Sequence record: NC_052659.1
Strand: one strand, 5' to 3'
Source: Escherichia phage nieznany
Length of the DNA: 64,000 nucleotides
Of this stretch, positions 2,523-24,515 are shown one piece after another. The notes beneath the pieces were generated by a model. That model was given only the letters and a program-made list of their open reading frames with translations, ran no database searches and was not told the DNA's origin. How positions within the stretch are numbered: position 1 is the stretch's first letter; every line of letters starts with the position of its first letter. The position numbers were made by a program, and so were the translations under genes.

Positions 2523-2996
2523 ATGTTTCAAGTAAATGTCAATGTGCATAATAGTTACTCTGATTGTGAGACGTGTGGCTATAATTCATCTAATGTTGTT
2601 CGTATTAGTGGCGATTTAGGAGAAGCTTCTTTTGGAGAAGAAGCAAGTTGCTTTAGTGGTATGGATGCAGAATGGAACGATATTGCACATTGGTTGGTGA
2701 GCAAACTAAAAGAAAAAGAGAAACCATTTCCTACTCTGCTTGATCGTTCTCTTGTAGAAGATGCAGGTAAAGCATATGCAGACTATGCGTATGCAGACGG
2801 GAAATATTTGGAAGATGATAAGGCTAACCATTTGCTTTATGTTTACTATGAAGCTGAATCTGCCTACGATAATTATTATAGCATGTCTAACATCCTACGT
2901 CTGTTTGCAGAGTTTGATATTTATTTCGAAGTAGAATTTTCAGAAGATGATACTTACGAATATGATTCTTATGATCCATTTGAGGAGGACGAATAA
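2523..2996 (+). CDS. acidic hypothetical protein
   Basis: 157-aa ORF after TAGGAGGG RBS; D/E/Y-rich C-terminus. Confidence 0.45.
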   Translation: MFQVNVNVHNSYSDCETCGYNSSNVVRISGDLGEASFGEEASCFSGMDAEWNDIAHWLVSKLKEKEKPFPTLLDRSLVEDAGKAYADYAYADGKYLEDDKANHLLYVYYEAESAYDNYYSMSNILRLFAEFDIYFEVEFSEDDTYEYDSYDPFEEDE

Positions 2997-3796
2997 TGCC
3001 AAGACGTGTATATTTTATTAGTGGTGCGGGACTAAGTGCTGACAGCGGAATCCAAACATTTCGCACAGAAACAGATTCTGGAAAGGCATTATGGGATGAA
3101 TACGATTTAACAGAAGTCTGTGACATTTTCAACTTCCGTGACGGTTATCAGCAAGAACAGGGTATTCCTGATGCTATGGGTGGCTTAGATGTGGAAGGAT
3201 ATAACCTCTACCGTAAAACTCACGACTTCTACAATAAACGTCGCGTGGAATTAGAGAAAGTTGACCCGAATCCAGCACATCTTCAGATTGGAGAATGGTT
3301 CGAAAAATACGGTGCAGAAAGGATTATTAACATTACTACTAACGTTGACGATCTATTAGAACGCGCTGGAATCGATAGAGAAGAAATATTGCACGTTCAT
3401 GGTTTCTTGCCAGAAGTTGTTGTTGATAACAAAATTATCAAAGATGTGGGTTACGCAGCTATTGATGTAGACGATTACAAATATGTGAAGCCTAATGTGG
3501 TGTTTTTTGGTGAGAATGCACCACTCTACACAGACATGTATCACAAACTGGATCAACTAACATCACAAGATATGGTTATCGTTGTAGGCTGCTCTAACCA
3601 AGTAATCAACTTCAACTGGGAACTCTTCCCTGCCCTGAATATTGGGGTTAAGATGGTTGTAGTTAACCCAGGTTTGAATTTTGTAGAACAAACTCTCTAC
3701 GAAGAACGTGGAGTGCTTGTCTACCGAGAGAAAGCAGGAACAGTCTTCAGTGATGAAGGCTTTATCAAAATGGTTGAAGACCATTTAAACAAATAA
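2996..3796 (+). CDS. Sir2-family (sirtuin-like) NAD-dependent protein
   Basis: FISGAGLSADSGIQTFR matches sirtuin GAGIS..GIP.FR NAD-binding motif; NITTNVDDLLERAG..HVHG matches sirtuin N.D.L..AG..LHG region. Confidence 0.65.
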   Translation: MPRRVYFISGAGLSADSGIQTFRTETDSGKALWDEYDLTEVCDIFNFRDGYQQEQGIPDAMGGLDVEGYNLYRKTHDFYNKRRVELEKVDPNPAHLQIGEWFEKYGAERIINITTNVDDLLERAGIDREEILHVHGFLPEVVVDNKIIKDVGYAAIDVDDYKYVKPNVVFFGENAPLYTDMYHKLDQLTSQDMVIVVGCSNQVINFNWELFPALNIGVKMVVVNPGLNFVEQTLYEERGVLVYREKAGTVFSDEGFIKMVEDHLNK

Positions 3797-4112: not shown

Positions 4113-4116
4113 AACA

Positions 4117-4148
4117 AAGGCACCCAAGTGGGTGCCTTTTCTATTTTA
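4117..4148. terminator. bidirectional terminator candidate at strand-switch point
   Basis: GGCACCCAAGTGGGTGCC hairpin flanked by A-run and T-run between converging blocks. Confidence 0.5.
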
Positions 4149-4436: not shown

Positions 4437-4458
4437 GAAAAAACCCGCCGAAGCGGGT
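4437..4458 (-). terminator. rho-independent terminator candidate
   Basis: ACCCGCCGAAGCGGGT hairpin with T-run on minus strand. Confidence 0.45.
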
Positions 4459-4503
4459 TCTATTGCTACGATAGAATCACTATCCTATAGTATTGTTTCT
4501 GTG

Positions 4504-4797: not shown

Positions 4798-4998
4798 TTA
4801 AATAACAAATTTTTCTTCTTCTGGTTTATCGTAATCTGGAGAATAAACATGTGCAGGATTAAAACCTTTAAAATTTCCGCGACCTTTACGTGGACAATTG
4901 AATGTGCGAGCTTGATGATCCCCAAAAGATTTCCCACAATGCATACATTTAAAATCAGTGCGTTTAGTCATGCCGTATCTCCTTTTAAAAGGCTGCAC
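4798..4998 (-). CDS. small zinc-ribbon-like protein
   Basis: 66 aa with CxxC (CMHCGK) and C..RKGRG; basic. Confidence 0.4.
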   Translation of the reverse strand: MQPFKRRYGMTKRTDFKCMHCGKSFGDHQARTFNCPRKGRGNFKGFNPAHVYSPDYDKPEEEKFVI

Positions 4999-7256: not shown

Positions 7257-7457
7257 TCTTCCTCCTGTTCGGTATTATTCACCTGTGAGACACAATGTAA
7301 CACAAGTTTTGTGAGTTTGTCAAGGATCTAATTACATTCTACAGAAGAAGAGGGTTAATAACTATAGGAATAGTCTTACTATAGGTGCAATACTAGTTAA
7401 GAGTTAGATTGATAGGTAAGACTTATCTTAAACAGATAATTGATAGGTGAGTCACCA

Positions 7458-7520
7458 TTGACTTTTTCAAAAAAGTATGGTACCCTAAACATATGTTTAC
7501 GAGCGATAGCGAGTAGTAGA
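7458..7520 (+). repeat. about 60-bp repeated element (copy 1) with promoter-like TTGACT-N17-TACCCT and conserved CGAGCGATAGCGAGTA box
   Basis: Near-identical to 34420-34480. Confidence 0.45.
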
Positions 7521-7616
7521 TTTCTATATAATAATGTTTCATGTTACTCACGATAGTGAGGTATGAAACGTAAGTGAAGGTAGATAAACTATGATCATCT
7601 ATCTACCATCTATTAA

Positions 7617-8391: not shown

Positions 8392-8587
8392 TTCTACCTC
8401 CTCCGATGCTTTGTGCCGTACCATCCCAAGCCATTAGAATATTTGCCAATAGTTCACGAGGCTCTTTAAACCAAACTTCCATTTCATCAAGAATCTCGTC
8501 CGTGTCGTAAGTATAACCTGGAACACCAAGTTCACATTTCTTAAGATAGCTTTCTAACCAGCGGTGATAATTCTTAACCCCATTCAT
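8384..8587 (-). CDS. hypothetical protein
   Basis: 67-aa ORF, start overlaps upstream stop. Confidence 0.35.
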   Translation of the reverse strand: MNGVKNYHRWLESYLKKCELGVPGYTYDTDEILDEMEVWFKEPRELLANILMAWDGTAQSIGGGRNE

Positions 8588-8960
8588 ACTGTGCTACCTT
8601 TTCTTTTACCCAATCTACACGATCTTTATCATAATGTTGAGTGCCAAGGAAAAGACCATTGTGGAAACTTTCCTCACCGAAAGGATAAATCGGATCTAAA
8701 CCATCTTCTTCAAATAACATTTTTAGTCTCTGTGATGTAGATTTCTTAGTTTCTGAGTTGTAGCTTGTGGTTATAAGCCAATCTTCCAAACAACGACACA
8801 AACCTTGACGAGAATCCCAAGGAAAAACACAATCTCCGACAGGAGCTTGTTCAGCCCATTTCAACCAGCCTTTAAAAAAGTTATACAGTATGTAGTCTTC
8901 AGTGTAATACATTATCTCCTCCTTTACGTATACAATAACACCCCGAAGAACGGGGTGCAA
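8574..8960 (-). CDS. hypothetical protein
   Basis: 128-aa ORF with GGAGGAG RBS. Confidence 0.5.
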   Translation of the reverse strand: MHPVLRGVIVYVKEEIMYYTEDYILYNFFKGWLKWAEQAPVGDCVFPWDSRQGLCRCLEDWLITTSYNSETKKSTSQRLKMLFEEDGLDPIYPFGEESFHNGLFLGTQHYDKDRVDWVKEKVAQYEWG

Positions 8961-8963
8961 CTG

Positions 8964-9575
8964 TTATTTAATCTGTTTGAAAATTTCGTTTGGAACGGTA
9001 CCGTTTAAAATACCTTCTACGATCTCCTGTGCAGATGTGTAAGAGAGTCCAAAAGAAGCTACGCCTAAAATTGCCTCCTTCAAAGGATCTGGCAGGGGTT
9101 CAAAATTACCTGCAACAAAGCCACCTGCACAAGCAGCGCCTTCATCATCCCAGAAAACAACTGCTACATCGTTACCATGCGAAGTTGTGCGATGTGCAAT
9201 AACTTCAACTTCGGTGCCTTCTTTAGGAACAGAATAAGAACTGTCCCAAGAATATCTTTCCAAATCAGGAACAAAGATAACCTTTTCACCTACTGGCGGC
9301 AGTTCACAACGATAATACCAAGAATTTTTTTCGTTCATTGTTTTATTTTCCTCCACGTCTTCAAAAGTAACGATCCAATCGTAGCCGTAAGAAAACGGAT
9401 ATTTTAGATCTAAAGAATAAGTTTGACCTAGATCGTCCTCAACAAGAACCATCCTGTCAAAGTTTGCGATGTTAGGATTATGTTTAATGATAGGGTATGT
9501 TTCCCCTACAGTAAATTGTCCCAAATGGTAAAGTTCATCTCTCCAAGTAATTTGGATATGAGTGCATTGAATCAT
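8964..9575 (-). CDS. hypothetical protein
   Basis: 203-aa ORF. Confidence 0.5.
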   Translation of the reverse strand: MIQCTHIQITWRDELYHLGQFTVGETYPIIKHNPNIANFDRMVLVEDDLGQTYSLDLKYPFSYGYDWIVTFEDVEENKTMNEKNSWYYRCELPPVGEKVIFVPDLERYSWDSSYSVPKEGTEVEVIAHRTTSHGNDVAVVFWDDEGAACAGGFVAGNFEPLPDPLKEAILGVASFGLSYTSAQEIVEGILNGTVPNEIFKQIK

Positions 9576-9579
9576 AAAA

Positions 9580-9852
9580 TCACCCCCAAGAAATATTTAT
9601 ATATCTTACAATGTTTGCACTGTCTAAAGCCATGTTTGCACCACACCCACGCTCGCGCCAGTAACTAACAATACCTTCACAGATACTTTCTTGTATCTTC
9701 TTATCACTTGGCATTTCTAGTATAAGACTTGGGTTGTGGATGTTTATGTTATAATATCCTTCCTCTGCGGCTTGAGCTACCAATTTACTTACTTTTTCAA
9801 AGTACGGGGAATTAGTGGCATCTGCCATTGTTTTTAAGGTTTGTCTATCCAT
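9580..9852 (-). CDS. hypothetical protein
   Basis: 90-aa ORF. Confidence 0.45.
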   Translation of the reverse strand: MDRQTLKTMADATNSPYFEKVSKLVAQAAEEGYYNINIHNPSLILEMPSDKKIQESICEGIVSYWRERGCGANMALDSANIVRYINISWG

Positions 9853-10250
9853 TATTCTGCCTCATCATAGAAGAAATCCAACTCTTGTTCCAGTTGTTTA
9901 ACTCGATCCTTAACCCACTGTACACGTTTTTCATTAAACATGCAACGTTTTTCCTTACACTCTTGCTCAAAAGATTTTGCTGTGTTAAATGGGAAAGTTG
10001 TATCTAAGCCAGCGTTTTCAAAACTGGCTAATTGCATACCATAAACAGAATATGCTAAAGAATGATCGGCTCGAAATTCATCACTTATATACATACGTAG
10101 ACCTCGGCATAAGCCAACATCAGCGTAACCACTTTCTCGTGGAAAGAGACGGAGGTGTTCTAACCAATTATTATAGAAATCTAAAAGAATCCTTTTACAC
10201 TTCAAATCAATTGTCATAAAAAGTTTCTCCTTCGTCGAACAAGTTGGCAA
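9852..10250 (-). CDS. hypothetical protein
   Basis: 132-aa ORF, stop/start overlap with neighbours. Confidence 0.5.
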   Translation of the reverse strand: MPTCSTKEKLFMTIDLKCKRILLDFYNNWLEHLRLFPRESGYADVGLCRGLRMYISDEFRADHSLAYSVYGMQLASFENAGLDTTFPFNTAKSFEQECKEKRCMFNEKRVQWVKDRVKQLEQELDFFYDEAE

Positions 10251-10617
10251 GATTGTTCACGGCAATCTGCGTGGAAAGAAGACAACTGTTTGCAGACACA
10301 TAAGCACGAGCTATTTTGTAAACATAGGCTTTCGTATTACAATTGTCCAGGATCGGAAGACTTTCGTCGATAGCATCTATAACACTAAACATCACATCTA
10401 AAACTTTAATGGTGAGTGTTGTATTTGTATCTTCGTAACCTTTTTCAATCCGACCTGAATAGAAAGCATAGTCCTCAACAGTTCGTCGTTTAAACTGCCG
10501 CATAAAATCGGAACCATCTGTAGCAGAATTGAACAAATTTTCAAAAAATACGTCCCATCCGGCAAAAAGGGCTGACAGCATGATTAAGTGATCTACAGAT
10601 TCATTTTCTTGTTTCAT
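10207..10617 (-). CDS. hypothetical protein
   Basis: 136-aa ORF. Confidence 0.5.
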   Translation of the reverse strand: MKQENESVDHLIMLSALFAGWDVFFENLFNSATDGSDFMRQFKRRTVEDYAFYSGRIEKGYEDTNTTLTIKVLDVMFSVIDAIDESLPILDNCNTKAYVYKIARAYVSANSCLLSTQIAVNNLANLFDEGETFYDN

Positions 10618-10625
10618 ATCCTCTC

Positions 10626-11303
10626 CTATTTAATGTTAAGTCTGGCACACAAACGAGAAACAGTTTTAGCATCCCATTTACCACCACGTGCTGTTGCTAT
10701 TTTCTTACTATTGAATTTTTCAGCAATAGTTTTGTAAGGTGTATTTAAATCTCTAAGGATCTCCAAGCGTTCACGGAATGTCTCTGCAAAAGCGTCTGCT
10801 TTAACAGAGTTGTATTCCATTTTTCCTTTTCTACGTGCAGCGGCAGTTTTAGGATTAGCACTACCTAATAAAACACCTTTACTTTTTGCTACAGCAAGAC
10901 CCTTTTTAATGCGATCAGCAATGCCTCTAACTTCTTGTTCAGCCAGAACAGATAGAAGTTGTATAACCATTTTATCTGCGTCTGGCATGATGGCTATCTT
11001 AACATCGATCATTTCTAGAAGAGTTGCTACGGAGGCGTTGTTACGACCCAAGCGGTCAACTTTAGCTACCAATAAAGTTGCTCCGGTAGCTTTACACATT
11101 TCAACCGCTTTAACCAGTTCCTTACGTTGCTTCCAATCGCCCTTACCCGAATAGTATTCAGAAAATTGACCAATAACTTCAGCATCAGGCACAGAGTCTA
11201 AGAAGTAACGGATATCGTTCTCTTGGCTCTCCATACCATATTGTGCCTCACCTTTTTTCTGTTTAGAAAGACGACTGTAAACAACAAACTTTTTCATAAC
11301 CAC
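10626..11303 (-). CDS. serine recombinase (resolvase/invertase family)
   Basis: N-terminal VVYSRLSKQ (catalytic Ser region), LLVAKVDRLGRN and LAEQEVRGIADRIKKGLAVAKSKG match resolvase/invertase conserved blocks; C-terminal HTH-like tail. Confidence 0.65.
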   Translation of the reverse strand: MVMKKFVVYSRLSKQKKGEAQYGMESQENDIRYFLDSVPDAEVIGQFSEYYSGKGDWKQRKELVKAVEMCKATGATLLVAKVDRLGRNNASVATLLEMIDVKIAIMPDADKMVIQLLSVLAEQEVRGIADRIKKGLAVAKSKGVLLGSANPKTAAARRKGKMEYNSVKADAFAETFRERLEILRDLNTPYKTIAEKFNSKKIATARGGKWDAKTVSRLCARLNIK

Positions 11304-11367
11304 TCCTAAACCATTGCTGTATTCTCACTTTACAAAACGAATAAACACTTGTCAAGGTATTTATTAT

Positions 11368-11580
11368 TTACAGCCATTCTACTCTTAAGCAGTATTCCTC
11401 GACATGTTGTTTACGCTTGTTTTTATCTATGTAAGTGTATTCAACAAATGTTCCAAGATAGTCCTTGTCTACATTGTGTGGGCTATTGATTGGACATTTA
11501 GTACGACAAACCCGTTGCCACTGACGAAGAATTACGGCTTTGTTTTTAGGATCAAAGGGATGAGGGTAATGTACCTTCAT
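11368..11580 (-). CDS. hypothetical protein
   Basis: 70-aa ORF. Confidence 0.4.
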   Translation of the reverse strand: MKVHYPHPFDPKNKAVILRQWQRVCRTKCPINSPHNVDKDYLGTFVEYTYIDKNKRKQHVEEYCLRVEWL

Positions 11581-11904
11581 TCACGCCTCCTGTTTTAGTC
11601 GAAAAATATTTTGAATAACTAGAGATGTATAGTTATCACTTAGTCCCATAAGTTCTACTTCCAAGTTTCGAATATCTTCTACTGTAGGAGGATATGTTGG
11701 TAAAAATGCTTGAGCATTACCAGATCCAACCTCATTGCTGTAAGCAGTTGTAAAATTGTAAGATACAAAACATGAAACACCTTTTTGTCGGTACCCGATT
11801 AATCGACGAATACACCAGATAAGAGCCAAACCTATGAGAACACCTCCTAAACCAGCTAACAAGAAGGATAAGTTCATAATAGCTTCGTTAACAACTGCTT
11901 GCAT
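11581..11904 (-). CDS. membrane protein
   Basis: 107 aa with hydrophobic helix LLAGLGGVLIGLALIWCI. Confidence 0.45.
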   Translation of the reverse strand: MQAVVNEAIMNLSFLLAGLGGVLIGLALIWCIRRLIGYRQKGVSCFVSYNFTTAYSNEVGSGNAQAFLPTYPPTVEDIRNLEVELMGLSDNYTSLVIQNIFRLKQEA

Positions 11905-11914
11905 TCTTTTCTCC

Positions 11915-12214
11915 TTAGTTATGTAAACCCAAATGTGCTACAACTTCTCTACGATAAGATAACTGCATAGCAATTTTATAGCCAGGATGAAAACCATTTA
12001 CATCAATGTCATCAAACCAAACCTCAAACGAACCGTGCTTAAGAGTCATTAAGTTGATATACCATTCGATAATATAATGATCGTCAGCAATACCTTCGAT
12101 GTAAAATTCTCGGCAACAGTGAGATAGGTCTTCACTTGTTTCACGTTTCCAGTCCTTGATAGCACCTTTCTCTTTGGCTTCATTCAAAATTTTGATCAGG
12201 TCTTCAACTTGCAT
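11915..12214 (-). CDS. hypothetical protein
   Basis: 99-aa ORF. Confidence 0.45.
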   Translation of the reverse strand: MQVEDLIKILNEAKEKGAIKDWKRETSEDLSHCCREFYIEGIADDHYIIEWYINLMTLKHGSFEVWFDDIDVNGFHPGYKIAMQLSYRREVVAHLGLHN

Positions 12215-12267
12215 ATCTATCTCCTTTGTGGTTAATCTTTATATTTTAAATATTGTACCGTCTTCTA

Positions 12268-12681
12268 TCAAATAGCCTCTTTCTCTAAAACAACTCTTTG
12301 GATCACAACATCTTCAATGTTTGCCAAACAATGACCCAAAGTCAATCCTGCCTTGAAAGGTGCTTGTAGTTTGGACTCGGCTTCTACGCGAATAGAATGT
12401 TCCGCTCCACACATCGTGTAATCTACACGGTAAACGTTTAAACCTAAGAACATAGATTCTTCTTCCTCACAACAAGGATTGAGTTCAGCCCATTCCCAAG
12501 CATCTCCTTCTAAAGCAAATGGAGTGTTGTAATTGAAGAAAGTGCAGCGCGGATACTCCCCGTTGAAAGAATCTTTCAACAAGATATATTTCTTACCGTT
12601 TGCGTGGAAGAGTTCTCCTTTGATAACCTTGCCTACAAGGATATCACTGTTAGTAGAACGGGTGCAGATAAACTTTTTCAT
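12268..12681 (-). CDS. hypothetical protein
   Basis: 137-aa ORF with RBS. Confidence 0.5.
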   Translation of the reverse strand: MKKFICTRSTNSDILVGKVIKGELFHANGKKYILLKDSFNGEYPRCTFFNYNTPFALEGDAWEWAELNPCCEEEESMFLGLNVYRVDYTMCGAEHSIRVEAESKLQAPFKAGLTLGHCLANIEDVVIQRVVLEKEAI

Positions 12682-12743
12682 GATTTTCTCCTCTTTGTTT
12701 TGATGAGATGATTATGACAAAGACAGATCCTTCTGTCAACGAT

Positions 12744-12983
12744 TTATTTCCACTCGCCTTGATGTTCTTTGATCTCGTAAGAGTAGTATTCGAACATGCT
12801 CATACAAACCACACCTGCCATTTCTAAACAAAGAGGTTTGTCATTATAGAAGGCACTTACTGCTCTTCCTGCTTTATGTGCTGCTTCTTCGGAATCACAA
12901 CCGCAAACGTTATGCACCCAAGGATCAGGGCCATCATATTTAAGACGTACAATCCACATGATCATTCTTCCATCTCGAACCAT
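12744..12983 (-). CDS. hypothetical protein
   Basis: 79-aa ORF. Confidence 0.4.
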   Translation of the reverse strand: MVRDGRMIMWIVRLKYDGPDPWVHNVCGCDSEEAAHKAGRAVSAFYNDKPLCLEMAGVVCMSMFEYYSYEIKEHQGEWK

Positions 12984-13189
12984 TCAGGGAACACTTTGTG
13001 GAAGACACGTGTTGTTTCTAAGAGAAATTCCAACTCTTTTTCCAAATCTGCGTTCCAACCGTTTATTTTAACACGGATTGCCAATGCACTTGCACGGCGA
13101 CTCAATTCTTGACAGATTGGATCACGCAGAACTATTGAGTCATAAAACTGACAAACAGCCTCAAGTTCATACCAGTTATAATCCGACAT
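12962..13189 (-). CDS. hypothetical protein
   Basis: 75-aa ORF. Confidence 0.4.
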   Translation of the reverse strand: MSDYNWYELEAVCQFYDSIVLRDPICQELSRRASALAIRVKINGWNADLEKELEFLLETTRVFHKVFPEWFEMEE

Positions 13190-13515
13190 TATTCATCCTC
13201 CTCTGCAATACGATCTCTTACCCAATTAATCCTGTCCACGTTCAGGTGACATACCTTTGCATCTGATTCTAAGACATATGCATCGTAGTTCTCATTGAAA
13301 GGGAGTTCTTGACTCAACCCTTTGTGGTAAAACTGTGCGTGCATTTCATCTGACAAGGTTGTTATAATGGGGTTGTAATTACCTCTGTGCACATAATCGA
13401 ACAAGTTGGCACACAAACCACAATCCCGCCGAAAAGGTTTACCATCAGGAGCACCAACATCAATCCATGCTAGATAAATTTTATAAAACTCCATCAAATC
13501 TTTACTTGTTTTCAT
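13189..13515 (-). CDS. hypothetical protein
   Basis: 108-aa ORF. Confidence 0.45.
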   Translation of the reverse strand: MKTSKDLMEFYKIYLAWIDVGAPDGKPFRRDCGLCANLFDYVHRGNYNPIITTLSDEMHAQFYHKGLSQELPFNENYDAYVLESDAKVCHLNVDRINWVRDRIAEEDE

Positions 13516-16132: not shown

Positions 16133-17771
16133 ATTATGCTCCTTTGTAGATTATGTTGGTGCGTTCACACTCTGCCACCAGCAAGCCAAGCTTTGTAAAA
16201 CTTCATTAGACGTAAGCTACTCAACGGAACATTTTTACTCTCTTGCATGATAATCTCCTCTCATCGTTAGCCATCTTTCATGGCAATCATCAATCACCAA
16301 CATCATACGATCAATCTTAGGGAATTACAATCGAATTATCATAGGGGATTCCTATCAATTATCCCCTATATACCGATTATTTTTGACACCCCACTCTTGT
16401 ATAAAAAGTAACCCAAAATATCTACGGGGAGAGATTATTTCGGGACACCCTGTTTCATGGCAATCATGGCAAGAATATCTAATAGAATCAATATCATATG
16501 GCAAAAATCATGGCGCATACGTAAGAAGTGCTTAACGCGAATTTTCGGGCCGTCAGGTCCACGCAGCGACAATTCCCAAATATCATGCGAATGAGAATAA
16601 TTATCATTCGTATTCAATGACTTATGCAAAGCTCATGCCAACGTAGCGACAAGGTGGGCCACTTGATTATAAATCACACAAACACTTATTTATCAATGGT
16701 TTGGCAACCTCATCATATGACGGAACAATGTCAACTAATCCCGCTCATGACAAGCAGACTATTATTTATATGAGAATGATTATTATTTAAACGTTTATTA
16801 ATATAAAAACTAGAATAAATCAAGATTATTCTGATTTTATTTACGTTTAAGAGAAGGTGCTCAACATATCGCGTAGCGATAGTATTCGCCCCCCAAAAGA
16901 TTAGCCTTTATTTTCTTGTATGTTTATACACTATGTGCACACTATGCAACCTGTCGCTATTCGCTCATGTTGCTACGTGCAATTATTCATCTTGCTAATG
17001 ATGATCACACTGAACGATAGTGATAACTCTTGTAATTACCACAATGATTATTGTTATTGCGCTAATGTTATGATCTTGGTAATTACATATAATGCTAATA
17101 ATAAGCCAGCGCAATAAGTGTAAGCGTCATTACGCTTGCAATTATTGCAAGCTACGCAGTAACAAGAAATAACCGTCACCGATGGTTATGATTGTTGGGG
17201 TGTAGTTGGCTTATTATTAGCTCGCTATGTGTCCGGCATAGCGTGCTAATGATGACTCTGTGAATGATTAGTTTTGTAATGATTTCATTCAGGCACTATT
17301 TTGCTAATAGTTATTATTTTAATGGTTTCGTTTGTTATTGTTCGTTAGTTGGTTGTTTTGTCATGTTATCGTTATTTTGCTTAGTATTCATCATGGTTTG
17401 ATTGTTTGTCGTTATCAATCATCTTGCTATTATTCCTTTGATTATGATTAGTTTGCTTATTGTTTTATGTTGTTTGTTGGTTAGTTGTTGCGAACTATTA
17501 TCAACATTATAGTTATGCACTTATATTGCATAGATAAACATGGATAGATGATAATGGTTATCATTGCACCAGAAAGGAGGTAAAAGGGTGTTTTTGATGG
17601 TTTGTTGTTGGTTGTTGATCGATTTTAACCGCTTTAAATGGCTCTCTAACAGCCTGTAACCCTGGGATGTATGGTTATTCGTTTGCTGGTTGATTAGCTC
17701 GATACCACGATTTATTCAGTTTTGTTCTGTGTCGGTTTTTCATAGGCGAAAGCTATCAACATTGTTCGGGC
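16133..17771. other. 1.6-kb gene-free region with repeated motifs and strong GT skew (17220-17700); candidate origin or non-coding locus
   Basis: No credible ORF; repeated CATGGCAATCAT and GTAGCGAC-type motifs; G+T-rich plus strand. Confidence 0.5.
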
Positions 17772-17808
17772 AAAAAGAAAGGGCGCTTGGTGCGCCCCTT
17801 GTTTTGTT
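17772..17808 (-). terminator. rho-independent terminator ending the leftward small-gene array (bidirectional shape)
   Basis: GGGCGCTTGGTGCGCCC hairpin flanked by A-run and T-run; same element recurs at 20124-20156. Confidence 0.55.
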
Positions 17809-18382: not shown

Positions 18383-18682
18383 TTAGATCGCTGTTTCCAG
18401 TAGTTCGGCTAACGTCTTACCGCCTGATAGTTGGTCTAACGTTTGCTCTTCTGGCAAGAAATTAGCTGATATTAAACCGACTTGATTCCCTTTGTGCCAG
18501 TTAGCCTGGCGGATGATTCCATCCTTTAAGGATTTTACCGCCATTGTGCAACCGTCGCCAAATGATTCATTTTTATGGTCCATCACTTCATAAGCGCCCA
18601 GTTTGCTGCTGTTAGGCACCATTAACGCGAACACATCACCAACAACCAGTTTTTCTACGGTAACAATAGCGATAGTTTCCAT
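18383..18682 (-). CDS. small protein
   Basis: 99-aa ORF downstream of promoter-hairpin module. Confidence 0.45.
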   Translation of the reverse strand: METIAIVTVEKLVVGDVFALMVPNSSKLGAYEVMDHKNESFGDGCTMAVKSLKDGIIRQANWHKGNQVGLISANFLPEEQTLDQLSGGKTLAELLETAI

Positions 18683-18700
18683 TTTATTTTCCTCATTATC

Positions 18701-18757
18701 GGCGGCACCATTGCCGCCCTACAAGATACATATTACCAGACTAAGCCGACTTGTCAA
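18701..18757 (-). promoter_or_regulatory. promoter (TTGACA..TAATAT) plus 5' leader stem-loop GGCGGCA-CCAT-TGCCGCC
   Basis: -35 complement at 18752-18757, -10 complement at 18730-18735, hairpin 18701-18718, then RBS. Confidence 0.5.
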
Positions 18758-18758
18758 A

Positions 18759-18869
18759 CTATTTTTTCTTTTTCTTTGCTTCCAACCGTCTAAGGTTACG
18801 GCTGGACTTATTACGCAAGGCGCTCAGATCGTCGTACCCTTTCCATGCTTGCATATCTTTCGGATTCAT
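18759..18869 (-). CDS. micro-protein (36 aa, basic C-terminus)
   Basis: ATG preceded by AAGGGGG; below ORF-track length cutoff. Confidence 0.3.
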   Translation of the reverse strand: MNPKDMQAWKGYDDLSALRNKSSRNLRRLEAKKKKK

Positions 18870-18878
18870 GTTACCCCC

Positions 18879-19040
18879 TTACTTGTTAGCCGGATCATAT
18901 ACCAGGACCGCGCCACTTGCTTTCACGCTTTCCGCTTCATAGTTGCGCAAATCGTTTTCTGTAAGATTGAGCGCGATCACTTCCTCGATCTCGATACCAG
19001 TGGCAAGGGCGATCTCTTTGATAATGTCTGCTATTTTCAT
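18879..19040 (-). CDS. small protein
   Basis: Internal ATG at 19040 chosen so as not to overlap neighbour. Confidence 0.35.
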   Translation of the reverse strand: MKIADIIKEIALATGIEIEEVIALNLTENDLRNYEAESVKASGAVLVYDPANK

Positions 19041-19050
19041 GGTGTGTACC

Positions 19051-19170
19051 TTATAAGATGATTGATAAGATAGTGACAACGAAAGCGATTATACTGATGG
19101 CAAATGTCATCTTTTTACCTTCGGATACTGCCGGATTCTCTACCGTGTATTCTACTGTGTACTTGCTCAT
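19051..19170 (-). CDS. micro membrane protein (39 aa)
   Basis: ATG after GAGAGGA RBS; hydrophobic C-terminus; downstream of promoter-like module at about 19194-19250. Confidence 0.3.
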   Translation of the reverse strand: MSKYTVEYTVENPAVSEGKKMTFAISIIAFVVTILSIIL

Positions 19171-19267
19171 CGTGTAATCCTCTCGTTTGCTTTGGGGACT
19201 ATTCCCGCCGCCCTATGAATTAAATATACACTATCTCAAAATGATTGCAAGCCTTTTTCTAAATTAT

Positions 19268-19552
19268 TTATGCAGTAAACAAACCATCATTTACAACGGC
19301 GGCGATGATCTCCCGTGCCATTGATTCAGGGAAAGGGGCGCTATAGTCCTGGCTTGTCTCGTCGGTGTCAGTGATACAATGATAAGCTAACGAGTAAAAG
19401 CCTTTACTAACTGTTTTCAGTGAGACGATGATCACTCGGTCAAGCTTATTGGTGAATGTTGCCGTTAATGTGTTACCCTCCTGCGTCATGTTGGACAAGT
19501 AAGCGAGATCATTAATCAGGGAAAACATTAGCACGGTGTTAGCTTTACTCAT
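19268..19552 (-). CDS. small protein
   Basis: Start at ATG 19552 after GAGGATG RBS. Confidence 0.45.
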   Translation of the reverse strand: MSKANTVLMFSLINDLAYLSNMTQEGNTLTATFTNKLDRVIIVSLKTVSKGFYSLAYHCITDTDETSQDYSAPFPESMAREIIAAVVNDGLFTA

Positions 19553-19568
19553 GATTGCATCCTCAAAG

Positions 19569-19617
19569 GGGCGCGGCACCATTGCCGCCCTACACGATAA
19601 CTATAACACAATGTAAA
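19569..19617 (-). promoter_or_regulatory. promoter-like sequence plus leader stem-loop (GGCACCATTGCC family)
   Basis: Hairpin 19569-19590; -35-like TTTACA complement at 19612-19617. Confidence 0.4.
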
Positions 19618-19623
19618 ACAGGA

Positions 19624-19830
19624 TCAACCTTTATTTTTCCACGGTGTCAGCTTGTTAATCATTGGTGATAAATAGCGTTTACCAACGTAAAACAGTACGC
19701 CAACTGATGCAACGGCGGCGACCTCATGCATAGCCGACGGGAAACGGGTATCATAATAAGATCCAATAATAGCGATAGCGGCAACGGCTGCAACGTCGAT
19801 AATGATTTTTTCTTGTTTTGCGGTGATCAT
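19624..19830 (-). CDS. small membrane protein
   Basis: 68 aa with hydrophobic core AAVAAIAIIGSYY. Confidence 0.45.
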   Translation of the reverse strand: MITAKQEKIIIDVAAVAAIAIIGSYYDTRFPSAMHEVAAVASVGVLFYVGKRYLSPMINKLTPWKNKG

Positions 19831-19852
19831 AATATTTACCTTTTTGTATGGT

Positions 19853-19909
19853 GGGGAACTATTCCCCGCCTGATGTAATACAGTTTAACAGGTCCGGTTA
19901 TGGTGTCAA
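19853..19909 (-). promoter_or_regulatory. promoter (TTGACA-N17-TAAACT) plus leader stem-loop GGGGAATAGTTCCCC
   Basis: -35 complement 19904-19909; hairpin 19853-19870. Confidence 0.5.
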
Positions 19910-19915
19910 CCGTTT

Positions 19916-20101
19916 TTAAAGATATTTTATGCTAATAACGTTTTCCGGTTTAACCTTGTTATAATGTGCATCAACATAGATCAAACCATCGTCAGAAAAG
20001 CCCAGGATCACGCCCTGCGCAATAAAACCGTATTCGTCACGGTAACGCACGGCTATTTTTAATGTTGCGCTGTACGCTGTTTTAAGCTCGTTTAAAATCA
20101 T
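19916..20101 (-). CDS. small protein
   Basis: 61-aa ORF. Confidence 0.4.
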   Translation of the reverse strand: MILNELKTAYSATLKIAVRYRDEYGFIAQGVILGFSDDGLIYVDAHYNKVKPENVISIKYL

Positions 20102-20123
20102 TTTTGTTTATCCTCTACATGTA

Positions 20124-20156
20124 AAAAGAAAGGGCGCTTGGTGCGCCCTTGTTATG
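20124..20156 (-). terminator. terminator candidate (second copy of AAAGAAAGGGCGCTTGGTGCGCCC element)
   Basis: Hairpin 20132-20148 with flanking T/A runs. Confidence 0.5.
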
Positions 20157-20303
20157 TTAATCCTCTAAATCCATCCAATTATATTTGTCACTCTTCCCGC
20201 GCTTTGTTTTATTACGCTTGTCGCCTTTGCGGATCACTTCCTCGTTCCAGGCCTTGCGGATCTTGGAAGATTGAATTTTTTCTGCGCGATTAGATGTATT
20301 CAT
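20157..20303 (-). CDS. micro-protein (48 aa, basic)
   Basis: ATG after GAAGAGGAAA RBS. Confidence 0.35.
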   Translation of the reverse strand: MNTSNRAEKIQSSKIRKAWNEEVIRKGDKRNKTKRGKSDKYNWMDLED

Positions 20304-20322
20304 TTTGTTTCCTCTTCATATG

Positions 20323-20376
20323 AGCGGCACCATTGCCGCTATATTGTTAATTTAAACTGTTTTGTAAAATTGTCAA
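20323..20376 (-). promoter_or_regulatory. promoter plus leader stem-loop
   Basis: Hairpin 20323-20340 (AGCGGCACCATTGCCGCT); -35 complement 20371-20376. Confidence 0.5.
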
Positions 20377-20382
20377 GGTTTA

Positions 20383-20736
20383 TCATTCATAAGAGCAAGC
20401 AAGGATCACGCCTGCAATATAAAGCCAATAATTTTCCCTTTCTCGTTGGATTTTATCATCGCGGCTATTCTCTTTAATGTATCCCCAGGATGTTAACAGG
20501 CGATCAATTTCCCAATATTCGAAAGCGATATTGATATCTGATGGCAAACCTTGTAACCATGATGCAAGTGCTTTAACAATACTATAATTAAAACGTGATT
20601 GGTTATCAGGGTACCAGTACTCGGAATTAAAACGGCGCATCAATTCCGCGATCTTCTCTTTTTCGGTTGTAATACCGTAATCATTAAAATCGATAGCGGC
20701 AAGGATGTACTCTTTAATTGCATTTTGTGCTTTCAT
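20383..20736 (-). CDS. small protein
   Basis: 117-aa ORF with AAGAGAGAAAG RBS. Confidence 0.5.
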   Translation of the reverse strand: MKAQNAIKEYILAAIDFNDYGITTEKEKIAELMRRFNSEYWYPDNQSRFNYSIVKALASWLQGLPSDINIAFEYWEIDRLLTSWGYIKENSRDDKIQRERENYWLYIAGVILACSYE

Positions 20737-20755
20737 GGTCTTTCTCTCTTTTTGA

Positions 20756-20812
20756 GCGGGAGCTATTCCCGCCCTACGTGTAACAGTTTACTGAAAATTA
20801 AATCCGTGTCAA
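20756..20812 (-). promoter_or_regulatory. promoter plus leader stem-loop
   Basis: Hairpin 20756-20772 (GCGGGAGCTATTCCCGC); -35 complement 20807-20812. Confidence 0.5.
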
Positions 20813-20815
20813 GCT

Positions 20816-21037
20816 TTATTTTGTTACTACCATTTGGTACCCTGTTTCAATGTTAGTAAATACTGTTATCCCGTCCTGGCGTTCACTCATTAGCATACAA
20901 GGCGCTAACATCCTTTCTACTGCCTTGCACTCGTTGTAAACGGCGGTTATATCTCCTGCGGCCTTGTCTTCTGTAGTAAATGTCTCGTTTACGTAAACCT
21001 GACCAGCAACAACGGCGACAATAGCAAAAGTGATCAT
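20816..21037 (-). CDS. small secreted or membrane protein
   Basis: Start at internal ATG giving MITFAIVAVVAGQVYV hydrophobic N-terminus. Confidence 0.4.
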   Translation of the reverse strand: MITFAIVAVVAGQVYVNETFTTEDKAAGDITAVYNECKAVERMLAPCMLMSERQDGITVFTNIETGYQMVVTK

Positions 21038-21116
21038 AATGTTTTTTCTCTTTATGTGTTTCGTTTCAATTAGTTGATAATACAGCAATTTGCAGATTAG
21101 TCTTTAGCAATTCATG

Positions 21117-21335
21117 CTATTTACTCACAACAATATCGAAAACAAATTTTTCTTTGTTGTCTAAGCTCACGTATCCGATTCGACCACGCAATCCGAGAGT
21201 AGTGCCGTATTCGTAACCATCAAGACCTTTAACCTTCCAATCCATGCCCATTAAAACCGCATTATATTTCTGACCAACTACAAAAGCGCCACCAGTTGAT
21301 TCAATGCAAACAACTTTAATTTTACGGATTGCCAT
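21117..21335 (-). CDS. small protein
   Basis: 72-aa ORF; upstream TTGACT-N16-TATAAT on minus strand (about 21378-21410). Confidence 0.45.
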   Translation of the reverse strand: MAIRKIKVVCIESTGGAFVVGQKYNAVLMGMDWKVKGLDGYEYGTTLGLRGRIGYVSLDNKEKFVFDIVVSK

Positions 21336-21412
21336 TTTCTTTCTCTCTTTCTGGTGATTGGTTTCTCTTCTCTATAGCGCCCATTATAAGGCGCTATAAC
21401 GAAAAGTCAACG

Positions 21413-21582
21413 ATTATTTTTTAAGGCTTAAAGTACCTAACTTGTCAGCATGACGTAGACCAGGGAAGATCCATTTTCCTGATTCATCTTTTACAGGGGC
21501 TTTAAGCGTAGCGCCCAGGTTGGCGGCGTTAACTTTACGTGCAACGTTGCGAGCGGCTTCACGGGTAGCGAAAGTGATCATG
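21413..21582 (-). CDS. micro-protein (55 aa)
   Basis: ATG with RBS; CGT/CTG-rich codons; below ORF-track cutoff. Confidence 0.4.
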
Positions 21583-21605
21583 ATATTTTCCTCTTCTCTT
21601 TGTTA

Positions 21606-21667
21606 GGCGGTGGACCATTCCGCCGCCTTGATGTAATACAGTTTACTCTTTTTCTTTCCCGTGTCAA
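21606..21667 (-). promoter_or_regulatory. promoter plus leader stem-loop
   Basis: Hairpin 21606-21627; -35 complement 21662-21667. Confidence 0.5.
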
Positions 21668-21676
21668 CAATCTTTT

Positions 21677-21904
21677 TCAGATTAATTCATCCAGGCATAA
21701 CAGGCGATCAACGTTGAGATCGGTCAGGCTGATGGTTGGCACCTGGTAGGATTCGATGTACTCGACGCTTGCATATTCCCCAAAATTAGCAATAGCCCAC
21801 TTATTCAAGATCTCACATACATCATTAATCTTTTTGTTTGTTACAACTGCAATAACCTGGGAAGTGCCAACGGTGCCGGATACGCGAACAATATTGATAG
21901 CCAT
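21677..21904 (-). CDS. small protein
   Basis: 75-aa ORF. Confidence 0.45.
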   Translation of the reverse strand: MAINIVRVSGTVGTSQVIAVVTNKKINDVCEILNKWAIANFGEYASVEYIESYQVPTISLTDLNVDRLLCLDELI

Positions 21905-21926
21905 AATCTTTAATCTCTCTGTTGTT

Positions 21927-21986
21927 GGCGGGAAACCACTTCCCGCCCTATGTGATACATCTTACACTAATTTTAAACGTTGTCAA
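21927..21986 (-). promoter_or_regulatory. promoter plus leader stem-loop
   Basis: Hairpin 21927-21947 (GGCGGGAAACCACTTCCCGCC); -35 complement 21981-21986. Confidence 0.5.
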
Positions 21987-21995
21987 CTGTTTTTA

Positions 21996-22235
21996 TTACA
22001 TTCCAACCATCGCGGCGCGGATCGCTGTAGTGCTATACTTGAAACCGTCTGGAGTTTTATCTTGTCCAGTTTGTTCCAGGAATAACATCATATCACGGGC
22101 AGCATCATTACGATTAGTATTAGCGGCGATAAATTCTTTCGCCAACCGATATAATGATTCATCGTTATTAATCCAAAGGCTTACATTCCAGTGAGTTTTA
22201 TTTTTGTGACCTAAGAACATTTTTGATTTAGCCAT
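21996..22235 (-). CDS. small protein
   Basis: 79-aa ORF. Confidence 0.45.
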   Translation of the reverse strand: MAKSKMFLGHKNKTHWNVSLWINNDESLYRLAKEFIAANTNRNDAARDMMLFLEQTGQDKTPDGFKYSTTAIRAAMVGM

Positions 22236-22259
22236 GATATTAATCTCTTTTTCAGTGAG

Positions 22260-22318
22260 GCGGGAAGTATTCCCGCTCTCTATGTAATACAGTTTACTCT
22301 TTTTATTCGTGCTGTCAA
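22260..22318 (-). promoter_or_regulatory. promoter plus leader stem-loop
   Basis: Hairpin 22260-22276 (GCGGGAAGTATTCCCGC); -35 complement 22313-22318. Confidence 0.5.
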
Positions 22319-22324
22319 TGCTTT

Positions 22325-22690
22325 TTATAAATCTTTTTTACGTTTAACATCGCTCGCATGACTGTATACAGTGATCCCATTGTCACGGCAAAAACGGGAA
22401 AGATACGCGCCGCGTGAAAACTCTTTACCTTCCATATTAATAACCTTGCTAAATTCTTCCAGGGCGACGGTATCAAAATGATCACCATAGCCATATTGAA
22501 ACGGAACGTTAACCACCTCGATCAGTTTACCGCCGATCTCAACGTCAACCATTAAAGAAAAATATGTGTTACCGTAAGACTGTTGAAACCAGCGACGGGC
22601 GCTAATGTGCACCGCTTCAATGCTGGATAATTCAATTTTAGCCGTGTTAGCCAGGGTAGCATAAGCGGAAACATTGATATTAATAGCCAT
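22325..22690 (-). CDS. small protein
   Basis: 121-aa ORF. Confidence 0.5.
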   Translation of the reverse strand: MAININVSAYATLANTAKIELSSIEAVHISARRWFQQSYGNTYFSLMVDVEIGGKLIEVVNVPFQYGYGDHFDTVALEEFSKVINMEGKEFSRGAYLSRFCRDNGITVYSHASDVKRKKDL

Positions 22691-22716
22691 GATGATAATC
22701 TCTCTTTTTGGTTAGT

Positions 22717-22769
22717 GGGAAGTATTCCCGATAAAAGTTATTATGCTTATACTATCACTCATTGTCAAT
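22717..22769 (-). promoter_or_regulatory. promoter plus degenerate leader stem-loop
   Basis: GGGAAGTATTCCC 22717-22729; -35 complement 22764-22769. Confidence 0.4.
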
Positions 22770-22787
22770 AGTATAAGACTAAAACTT

Positions 22788-22967
22788 TTAACGATAATCG
22801 TTATAGGCTTTATTGACCTGGCGAATGTAACATTCGAAAGCAAGATCAATGTATTCGTATTCACGCACATAATCACCATAGGTCACTACATACATTTTTA
22901 AAGTTTCCTCATAAGCCAGGAGGATCGAATCTAAACCTATAATCTCAGTTTTTGCAATGATAGCCAT
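22788..22967 (-). CDS. micro-protein (59 aa)
   Basis: ATG-initiated ORF downstream of promoter module; below ORF-track cutoff. Confidence 0.4.
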   Translation of the reverse strand: MAIIAKTEIIGLDSILLAYEETLKMYVVTYGDYVREYEYIDLAFECYIRQVNKAYNDYR

Positions 22968-22987
22968 GATGTTAACCTTTTATTGTT

Positions 22988-23044
22988 GGCGGCACCATTG
23001 CCGCCCTACGTGATAAACTATACCAGAAGTTTAAACAGTGTCAA
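22988..23044 (-). promoter_or_regulatory. promoter plus leader stem-loop
   Basis: Hairpin 22988-23005 (GGCGGCACCATTGCCGCC); -35 complement 23039-23044. Confidence 0.5.
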
Positions 23045-23050
23045 CCGTTT

Positions 23051-23413
23051 TTATTCGTAAATTTTACCGCTTTCGGCCCATACCATAACGCGGCGCATAC
23101 TATCCCAAGTGTTTTGATCCAAGTTTAAGCCGTGCAACTCTTCGGTACTTCCCAGACCAGGTACCGCTTTGTTGTAAGTCGCATATAAGCGCCCTTGATA
23201 CTCATACGCCAGAGTAAGATCCGTTTGAATCATCTTTTTAAGCATAGCATTAAGCATCATATTAGCGGCATGTTGATCACGTTTTAGCGGTAACATGTCA
23301 ATAAGGGCGCGATAAGCTGAAACATGAATATCAACCGTTTCACGTGGTAAATTTTTCATATCATCGCGGAAAGATACCAGATTAAACATGATAGTATTGA
23401 TTTGCTTGCTCAT
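23051..23413 (-). CDS. small protein
   Basis: 120-aa ORF. Confidence 0.5.
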   Translation of the reverse strand: MSKQINTIMFNLVSFRDDMKNLPRETVDIHVSAYRALIDMLPLKRDQHAANMMLNAMLKKMIQTDLTLAYEYQGRLYATYNKAVPGLGSTEELHGLNLDQNTWDSMRRVMVWAESGKIYE

Positions 23414-23434
23414 TGTGTTACCCTTTTTTGTTTT

Positions 23435-23495
23435 GGCGGGGAAGTATTCCGCCGCCCTATGTGATACATCTTATCAGATTAAAAAACGTTGTCAA
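23435..23495 (-). promoter_or_regulatory. promoter plus leader stem-loop
   Basis: Hairpin 23435-23456; -35 complement 23490-23495. Confidence 0.5.
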
Positions 23496-23503
23496 GAATA
23501 TTT

Positions 23504-23599
23504 TTAGAAAATAATAGCCGCTACTACAACCCAAAATGGAACGGCTAGAATGATAGCGTTAATCGTTCCAACCGTCAAGCTATTTTCTTTATTAATCAT
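23504..23599 (-). CDS. micro membrane peptide (31 aa)
   Basis: ATG after AAGAGG; entirely hydrophobic core; has its own promoter-hairpin module. Confidence 0.3.
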   Translation of the reverse strand: MINKENSLTVGTINAIILAVPFWVVVAAIIF

Positions 23600-23627
23600 T
23601 GTAAGCCTCTTGCATAATTTCACTATG

Positions 23628-23685
23628 AGCGGCACCATTGCCGCCCTACGTGGTAAATATTATGCCAGTGGCGGCGATATGTCAA
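23628..23685 (-). promoter_or_regulatory. promoter plus leader stem-loop
   Basis: Hairpin 23628-23647; -35 complement 23680-23685. Confidence 0.5.
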
Positions 23686-24248
23686 AGACTATTTTCAAAG
23701 TTTTCTAGTGCGATCCTTTTTTCTTCCTCTGTCGGCTGATAATCAGGAAAAGCATCAACACACAACAACGGCGGGATCTCTTCGTACTCTTCCTCTTCCG
23801 TTGTCTCCTCGTCTTCCTCCTGGGCTATGGCTGCAATTTTGGCTAATTTTCTTTCAGCTTGAATCAATTTACCATCAAGTACGTTTTTTGCCATGTTGTA
23901 AGCGGTCCAGGTGATGCGCTTACTTTCCAGGGCCTGATCGAGCGCCGCTATCTTGCTGGGGTATTCATCCAGGACACGAAAAGCTGGATCAACTTTGTAC
24001 AAAGGATTATCTTTCGCGCCGTCGCTCGCATCTTCCGCACTGGATAAATCAGCGTTACCATTTGCCAGCCAGCCAGGGCGCACATAACGCGCTTTTACGT
24101 TGCCGTTACTACGTGCTAATCTGTTACCTATTTGCTCACCACTATATCCCGTGGATTCATCGATAAGATGATCGGGAATGATGCGCGGATCATCTGCTTC
24201 ATGTTTTACCCAAGACTGGATCACATATTCGCGGCCCATATTAACCAC
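23682..24248 (-). CDS. hypothetical protein with acidic linker
   Basis: 188-aa ORF, largest in the array. Confidence 0.5.
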   Translation of the reverse strand: MVNMGREYVIQSWVKHEADDPRIIPDHLIDESTGYSGEQIGNRLARSNGNVKARYVRPGWLANGNADLSSAEDASDGAKDNPLYKVDPAFRVLDEYPSKIAALDQALESKRITWTAYNMAKNVLDGKLIQAERKLAKIAAIAQEEDEETTEEEEYEEIPPLLCVDAFPDYQPTEEEKRIALENFENSL

Positions 24249-24498: not shown

Positions 24499-24515
24499 TC
24501 TACCACCTTACAAAT

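Follow-up and report, generated by a model that had tools for sequence, protein, structure and literature searches.

A small serine recombinase gene in the lytic Escherichia phage nieznany, with an apparently intact active site and a possible resolvase-type role on phage DNA

Which DNA is recombined by a small serine recombinase that belongs to a lytic phage? This question is raised by a gene on the minus strand of Escherichia phage nieznany (sequence record NC_052659.1), located within a stretch of 64,000 nucleotides, which is called the window throughout and is numbered from its first letter. More than 60 genomes of Phapecoctavirus (phAPEC8-like, Stephanstirmvirinae), a group of lytic myoviruses of about 150 kb, match the region at 97-99% identity. 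An earlier description made from the sequence alone, hereafter the original prediction, had placed a recombinase of the resolvase/invertase family at this locus and had named, as usual roles of such phage enzymes, the driving of an invertible segment or the resolution of concatemers. Here, the answer tentatively put first is a resolvase-type reaction in which the enzyme would act on the DNA of the phage itself at one putative site, and the substrate, the site and the benefit that we infer for the enzyme are weighed against four alternatives.

The enzyme and its transcription unit

The gene and its parts, all on the minus strand, are as follows.

10626-11297, minus strand: serine recombinase coding sequence of 223 amino acids, with ATG at 11297 and the stop codon at 10628-10626; start as in public annotations
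10860-11297, minus strand: catalytic domain and long helix E, residues 1-146, from PF00239, the invariant residues and AlphaFold
11267-11265, minus strand: TCT codon of the nucleophile Ser11, within the catalytic domain
10629-10859, minus strand: putative C-terminal DNA-binding domain, residues 147-223, with a flexible linker, five helices and an 'RGGKW' loop before the last helix
10858-10870, minus strand: mosaic breakpoint; nucleotide homology to phiWec181 stops near 10864, where helix E gives way to the DNA-binding domain
11303-11307, minus strand: ribosome-binding site AGGAG, 5 nt upstream of the ATG at 11297, read from the sequence
11327-11355, minus strand: the gene's own sigma70-type promoter, TTGACA-17 nt-TAAAGT, with 10 of 12 matches in a consensus scan

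The assignment to the small serine recombinases was borne out by the Pfam Resolvase family PF00239, which was matched with 65.9 bits (cut-off 23.3, E=5e-18) by residues 7-144, corresponding to positions 2-144 of the 145 in the model, and by a conserved active site. Two alignments, of 24 and of 57 family members, showed Y7, R9, S11, Q25, R58, D81, R82 and R85 to be invariant, and their counterparts in gamma-delta/Tn3 are Y6, R8, S10, Q19, R45, D67, R68 and R71, respectively; the catalytic serine, S11, was thus conserved in all 57 sequences. Residue E47, which is D in some family members, aligns with D36 of gamma-delta/Tn3. Six residues, Y6, R8, S10, D36, R68 and R71, have been described as crucial in Tn3 resolvase (Olorunniji and Stark, PMC2794168), and five of them are identical in the phage protein, while the sixth is represented by the conservative D to E change. 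The AlphaFold2 model, with a mean pLDDT of 89.2, comprises the resolvase alpha/beta domain, helix E at residues 109-139 and a linker of lower confidence. By using Foldseek, the catalytic domains of Sin, gamma-delta, TP901-1 and Bxb1 were matched at probability 1.0 and ISC1926 was also matched, the longest (best full-length) alignment being that with the large serine recombinase Bxb1. With the catalytic residue set and the modelled fold both intact, the enzyme is apparently active.

A profile search among 1.8 billion cluster representatives retrieved 3,757 proteins at E<=1e-30, mostly of 215-240 aa and covering the whole profile. Because the open reading frame (ORF) is full length in comparison with this family and is under strong purifying selection, with 0 amino-acid changes between isolates, it is taken from its sequence to be a full-length member of a very large family and not a truncated remnant. 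Subclassification by hidden Markov models ended at the superfamily PF00239, since none of the NCBIfam subfamily cut-offs was reached and YneB, XisF, Mpi and Ccr all scored far below them. The YneB resolvase-like model NF049883 gave 32.5 bits against an equivalog cut-off of 175 bits and the Mpi master-invertase model gave 22.6 bits against 272 bits, which places the protein outside both groups. An IS607-type serine transposase was ruled out, as that type has a MerR-like HTH at its N-terminus and the catalytic domain after it, the reverse of the order found here (catalytic domain at residues 1-146).

The open frame at 10626-11303 on the minus strand counts 225 aa if it is read from the GTG at 11303, which was the length originally given. 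The frame exists as described, and the motifs quoted from it, VVYSRLS and LLVAKVDRLGRN, were both found in the protein; the length is more likely 223 aa, because the GTG overlaps the AGGAG ribosome-binding site, while the ATG at 11297 is well spaced from it and is used in public annotations. The true start is therefore likely this ATG, and the GTG is unlikely.

Upstream of the gene, the gap is only 65 bp. When six orthologous upstream regions of the Phapecoctavirus lineage with unrelated flanks were aligned, conservation was confined to the -35 and -10 boxes, the ribosome-binding site and the ATG. Direct reading of the homologues of phi92, Shewanella 1/4 and ICP1 showed a TTGACA-type promoter as well, in a gap of 57-78 bp. 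As the conserved promoter sits directly upstream in orthologues whose flanks are otherwise unrelated, the recombinase gene is considered a self-contained early transcription unit, predicted to use the host RNA polymerase.

The C-terminal part of the protein departs from what had been expected. A helix-turn-helix (HTH) had been proposed for it, and a putative DNA-binding domain is indeed found there, but with five helices over about 75 aa (149-156, 161-172, 175-183, 188-197 and 210-219 in the AlphaFold model) instead of the classical three-helix HTH of about 40 aa, and the HTH_7 family (three helices, about 40 aa) gave no match within it. The only other Pfam signal came from residues 189-218, which aligned with the start of the 'Recombinase' domain PF07508 at 18.2 bits, under the cut-off of 21.1 bits. 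By sequence and model, the domain resembles the first part of the recombinase domain of large serine recombinases and appears larger than the HTH of Tn3 or Hin. The Tn3, gamma-delta and Sin resolvases have the catalytic domain, helix E, the active-site residues and the domain order in common with the phage protein at an identity of about 20-25%, but the latter lacks an insertion of about 10 residues in the catalytic domain and ends in the five-helix region, and no three-subsite res was found beside the phage gene.

Distribution, selection and relocation of the gene

The protein is 100% identical in most of about 60 Phapecoctavirus records, including phAPEC8, ESCO5, ZCKP1 and UP17, and the gene is carried by essentially every Phapecoctavirus and Justusliebigvirus record. 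Beyond these, identity to the window protein falls as listed.

phiWec phages and metagenomic relatives: 74-81%
phi92 (gp053) and other Justusliebigvirus: 57%
Klebsiella relatives: 52-55%
Vibrio 1.063.O and Shewanella 1/4: 35-38%
some ICP1 isolates: 30%

The orthologue gp053 of phi92 has equal length and the same domain order. Between the window, phage G1 and phage ukendt, 12-15 synonymous differences were counted (dS about 0.09-0.11) with no amino-acid change, and this accumulation of synonymous changes alone indicates, at the level of the sequence, a very strong purifying selection on the recombinase.

The DNA-binding domain is nevertheless exchangeable. In phiWec181/190 (cluster P0005), identity to the window protein amounts to 95% in the catalytic domain and to only 36% in the C-terminal domain, whereas other relatives with an N-terminal identity of 83-87% retain 57-69% in the C-terminal domain. 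A local blastn comparison aligned window 11365-10864 with positions 2931-3434 of the phiWec181 locus (L006) at 81%, with unrelated DNA on either side. From these alignments, the DNA-binding domain is judged to have been exchanged in the phiWec181/190 lineage.

The position of the gene also differs between sister genera. In phi92 and in the Klebsiella phages phi1_175008 and FBKp34, the promoter and the gene form a cassette between gp054 and gp052. In Phapecoctavirus, the homologues of gp056, gp055, gp054, gp052 and gp051 follow each other in unchanged order, and the corresponding site is empty: in G1 (L016), a 46-bp spacer with a terminator lies at 4839-4884 between the gp054 and gp052 homologues, the equivalent in phi92 being L003 4941-5669, and the recombinase gene of Phapecoctavirus is located about 13 kb from this empty site. 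Promoter and gene thus behave as a cassette over evolutionary time, which may come from a general shuffling of early genes or from some self-mobility. A conserved partner gene was sought and rejected, as the trio of gp054, recombinase and gp052 is kept in Justusliebigvirus and the Klebsiella clade only and not in Phapecoctavirus, Shewanella or ICP1. In relatives, the gene stands among genes of DNA metabolism (a methyltransferase, a DprA-like protein, a ligase and a GyrB-like ATPase). In the isolate 2017_DRC_32 of ICP1, a well-studied lytic vibriophage, the homologue (L004 5001-5756, 30% identity) belongs to a gene block without the old gp numbering, and none of the papers found makes mention of it.

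Possible substrates of the recombinase

According to the tentatively preferred reading, an early gene, expressed from its own host-type promoter, would encode a catalytically competent small serine recombinase, a dimer of which would bind one specific site of the phage. Two direct copies of this site might then synapse, either in a replication dimer or concatemer or at both ends of the terminally repeated genome, and concerted double-strand cleavage via Ser11, subunit rotation and religation would release monomeric circles. A target on the phage, rather than on one host, is favoured because the hosts differ across the lineages, and concatemer resolution, the second of the roles named originally, is a possible one. 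The ends of the genome are compatible with such a scheme. An exact direct terminal repeat of 328 bp corresponds to window 16534-16861, as bases 1-328 of the Mt1B1_P17 record are identical to its last 328, and the Schickermooser, BI-EHEC, WPEC and KKP 3954 records break at both boundaries of 16534-16861. This agrees with the direct terminal repeats described at the ends of Stephanstirmvirinae genomes (PMC12695924).

Homologues on plasmids provide a parallel. Full-length homologues (35-40% identity) were found in 110 plasmid records, 92 of them non-mobilisable, and three plasmids of 5.8-6.4 kb were read: Marinovum pMaD11 (5.8 kb), a Klebsiella plasmid (5.8 kb) and a Synechococcus plasmid (6.4 kb). 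Plasmid pMaD11 carries RepA, ParA and the recombinase, and a long non-coding stretch lies upstream of the recombinase gene in all three. This setting is the canonical one for multimer resolution, the role to be expected of these plasmid enzymes, and the plasmids have nothing obvious to invert. The small-plasmid recombinases of 215-240 aa share with the phage enzyme a like architecture and a stand-alone gene, but the 65-bp gap of the phage compares with a long upstream stretch on the plasmids. Among phages, the Cre/lox system of P1 is a case in which a recombinase cyclises terminally redundant DNA and resolves dimers at one site per genome. The likeness is one of function only, as Cre is a tyrosine recombinase of a temperate plasmid-prophage, and no lox-like site was identified in the present DNA.

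Several observations weigh against this reading. No res-like site was found, and the 65-bp upstream gap has no conservation beyond the promoter and the ribosome-binding site among the six orthologues. Its imperfect palindrome of 26 bp over the -35 box was rejected as a site, as it has no second copy in the window and its right arm is lost in phiWec181. Third-codon positions are flat, with no constrained block within the gene that could mark an enhancer or a crossover site, and no site could be identified that was exchanged along with the DNA-binding domain in phiWec181/190. Since packaging in phages with terminal repeats proceeds from concatemers, a reduction to monomers would bring no obvious benefit, and the plasmid argument is one of guilt by association, at 35-40% identity. 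By per-organism match counts, the related Vequintavirinae (rV5-like Vequintavirus) appear to be without the gene; the ICP1 data suggest an accessory homologue in a variable region. This, like the different loci in sister genera with a clean empty site in one of them, is what a dispensable, moron-like cassette typically shows. Confidence in a resolvase is limited, since no site was found, the benefit is unclear, and the cassette and the domain swap fit almost equally a recombinase directed at foreign DNA.

This last alternative, which we regard as doubtful but as the strongest of the competitors, holds that an accessory cassette gene targets foreign DNA, be it the chromosome of the host, a prophage or satellite, or a relative infecting the same cell, and rearranges or breaks a site there; one version of it would be homing-like. 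It draws on the cassette between gp054 and gp052 and its empty counterpart described above, on the homology island that the gene forms among unrelated neighbours in Phapecoctavirus-like phages, on the swapped targeting domain, and on the ICP1 homologue in a block missing from the older gene numbering. A precedent also exists for a serine recombinase turned into a site-specific nuclease, namely ICP1 Adi in its relation with the PLE integrase (PMC9638900). However, the gene is apparently fixed in two genera, and its DNA-binding domain is under very strong purifying selection as well, while homing genes are usually patchy and decaying. Orthologues span phages of four host genera, the PADLOC defence-system libraries gave no match to the recombinase, and the shuffling of early-region genes is general, so relocation need not be self-catalysed. 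Bolder forms of both readings, in which a strictly lytic, terminally repeated subfamily depends on the recombinase for a Cre/lox-like cyclisation or monomerisation, or in which the cassette is homing-like and retargeted by its swapped DNA-binding domain, are considered improbable.

A DNA invertase, flipping a segment such as a promoter or host-range switch between sites of 12-14 bp too short for statistical detection, is quite unlikely. It is suggested by the best PHROG match (PHROG 125, 'DNA invertase', E=1e-32), by the weak sub-threshold match to Mpi and by the fact that short hix- or cix-like sites escape repeat searches. Hin, Gin, Cin and Pin are likewise small serine recombinases found in phages, and the PHROG name fits them, but here no invertible segment with inverted sites of 26-34 bp and no sign of a 5' enhancer were found, and the match to a DNA-invertase chain was weak (E=0.006). 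The original prediction had recognised no crossover inverted repeats by eye, and the repeat search agreed with it: no credible inverted or direct repeat pair brackets the gene within +/-4 kb in the window or in six other lineages. A composite genome of 151 kb, made of the window and the remainder of phage G1, was compared with itself by blast, and its inverted matches were terminator hairpins, promoter/terminator modules and local palindromes only. The single perfect inverted pair, of 22 bp, has one arm at 4438-4459 and the other just left of the window, and it represents a shared rho-independent terminator. The role of driving an invertible segment, which had been offered as the default, found no support in seven lineages and in the composite genome.

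Over codons 1-146, no block of synonymous-site conservation suggests a recombinational enhancer, although Fis sites are degenerate. When aligned to window 1-25000, the public genomes that match best give joined pieces all on one strand, which argues weakly against inversion there, as the search gives only the best place per record. The tail-fibre genes are distant from the recombinase gene and all in one orientation. Two distant homologues (37-43% identity) are found at prophage ends, next to tail genes, and neither of these two loci has convincing inverted repeats, which leaves an invertase context unsupported. One pair of 38 nt with 74% identity (9597-9634 and 11733-11770) lies around the gene; it was rejected, as its 11-mer seed is expected by chance, both arms are in coding DNA absent from phiWec181, and six other lineages have no analogous pair.

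A different candidate site was provided by a palindrome of 19 bp, AATGAGAAT-N-ATTCTCATT, which occurs in only two clusters in the 151-kb genome, with 6 sites at <=3 mismatches against 0.07 expected. The first is an array of four tandem copies 29 bp apart at 25847-25952 (starting at 25847, 25876, 25905 and 25934), about 9.3 kb from the left genome end and followed by AT-rich direct repeats of 138 bp; the second consists of one to three copies in the terminal repeat (16590-16608, 16769-16787 and 16818-16836). The array region matches T5-like phages inside their terminal repeats, and a related palindrome is found in the Klebsiella phages FKP3 (perfect 9-bp arms) and KP13-26 (one mismatch). The array resembles iterons, an injection-stop or an origin element and probably does not serve the recombinase as a site. 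As such a site the palindrome was rejected as unlikely: its core did not change in phiWec181 although the DNA-binding domain was swapped there, it is also present in T5-like phages, and its centre is a single base, in contrast with the dinucleotide used by serine recombinases.

It is very unlikely that the protein is a DNA-binding regulator or architectural protein that no longer recombines DNA, in the manner of the repressor function of TnpR. Its own promoter, an imperfect palindrome of 26 bp overlapping the -35 box (11340-11365) and the failure to find a recombination site would fit such a role. However, the catalytic residues are invariant across a diverged family, which is unexpected if the chemistry were dispensable, and the palindrome is not conserved in phiWec181.

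An integrase that permits occasional lysogeny or integration is barely credible: some small serine recombinases of staphylococcal temperate phages (about 25% identity) are annotated as integrases and the two distant homologues lie at prophage ends, but the protein has no zinc-ribbon or coiled coil, and the phage has no repressor or lysogeny module and belongs to phages described as strictly lytic (PMC5374246). The large serine recombinases Bxb1, phiC31 and SPbeta integrase resemble the protein at the start of their recombinase domain, through the C-terminal helices and the 'RGG.W' loop, but they have 450-600 aa against 223 aa, and no att sites are present here. The statement that no large integrase domain is present could be upheld, as the sub-threshold PF07508 match spans 30 residues only. 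When window 9000-13000 was compared by megablast with 5,426 complete E. coli genomes and the plasmids belonging to them, nothing matched, and for this reason there is no sign of integration or of plasmid-like carriage in E. coli. The readings as invertase and as integrase are disfavoured because no inverted-repeat pair, no conserved cis-element within the gene or upstream of it and no copy of the region in a complete E. coli genome were found.

Genome setting, annotation and significance

About 5.2 kb separate the recombinase gene from the right genome end, and the gene is part of a leftward block of small genes that runs from 16.1 to 4.1 kb. The small leftward gene block in a lytic phage was correctly described, and all of the ten neighbours tested fall into PHROGs of unknown function. 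Nearness to the genome end was rejected as a conserved feature, as relatives carry more than 10 kb of genes upstream. In the same block, three paralogous early genes of phrog_2510 (function unknown) are found within 5 kb, all on the minus strand (8574-8912, 9852-10217 and 13189-13515). A perfect bidirectional terminator hairpin with a 10-bp stem stands at 4116-4139, where the rightward block that contains Sir2 and the leftward early block converge.

A number of non-coding elements were observed alongside. The gap of 360 bp at 7257-7616 in the leftward early block has the short repeats CCTATCAAT and CCTATAGT, each present twice, and the inverted pair AGTCTTAC/GTAAGACT; within it, a promoter-like element on the plus strand (7458-7522) shares 80% identity with the one at 34420-34483 that heads the rightward block. 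The gap may give an antisense transcript or act as a regulatory site. The terminal repeat sits in an AT-rich non-coding region of 1.6 kb (16150-17800) at a strand switch, and a Y-shaped structured element is found at 17094-17220 on the plus strand, with a 3' hairpin reaching about 17247, a closing stem of 15 bp and two hairpins. The RNA fold of 17070-17250 on the plus strand has -77.9 kcal/mol (z=-8.4), compared with -56.5 for the other strand. Four G-U pairs, which are pairs on the plus strand only, are invariant, and 11 pairs have compensatory changes (phiWec181/190, Klebsiella FKP3 and KP13-26), including three consecutive pairs of the closing stem. The element matches no Rfam family and is possibly a new phage non-coding RNA (ncRNA) or an origin cruciform.

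From 18600 to 25200, modules made up of a GC-rich terminator hairpin with a TTGACA promoter behind it (families D1-D6) stand between almost all small genes of the leftward block of 17.8-25.2 kb. One such module is inverted at 47.8 kb (47770-47870), and these modules make up the longest 'inverted repeats' in the window. At about 25619-25845, a GC-rich non-coding stretch retains 70-82% nucleotide identity far beyond the subfamily and is conserved in Cronobacter phages CR3 and GAP31, Klebsiella KB57, Salmonella PVP-SE1-like, Pantoea and Pectobacterium phages. It has no convincing ORF and no Rfam match, and it is a candidate for a conserved ncRNA or cis-element.

The recombinase gene itself is already known and publicly annotated, as in gp053 of phi92, and its product is nothing out of the ordinary within a very large known family. 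GenBank labels the same gene as 'DNA invertase', 'resolvase', 'serine recombinase', 'recombinase family protein' or 'hypothetical protein' (the last in many records), and several records give the label 'methionine ABC transporter ATP-binding protein' to the recombinase or to its upstream neighbour of 70 aa. The announcement of ESCO5 and ESCO13 reports that no 'specific recombinases' are present (PMC5374246); contrary to this, the ESCO13 record itself annotates a resolvase. Near-identical genomes have been deposited as Campylobacter, Acinetobacter, Pseudomonas, Klebsiella or 'Dompiswa' phages. In the literature searched, no functional study was found for the gene in phAPEC8, phi92 or ICP1, and neither these papers nor the GenBank records give it a substrate or function.

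The practical side of these results lies in phage therapy, for which Phapecoctavirus and Justusliebigvirus are popular candidates and in which recombinase genes are routinely a red flag for lysogeny. Knowing that this recombinase is small, is not of the integrase type and has left no integrated copy in the complete E. coli genomes makes the flag easier to interpret. For the biology of these phages, the locus poses the question of what role is played by a strongly constrained site-specific recombinase in a non-integrating virus with nothing obvious to invert.

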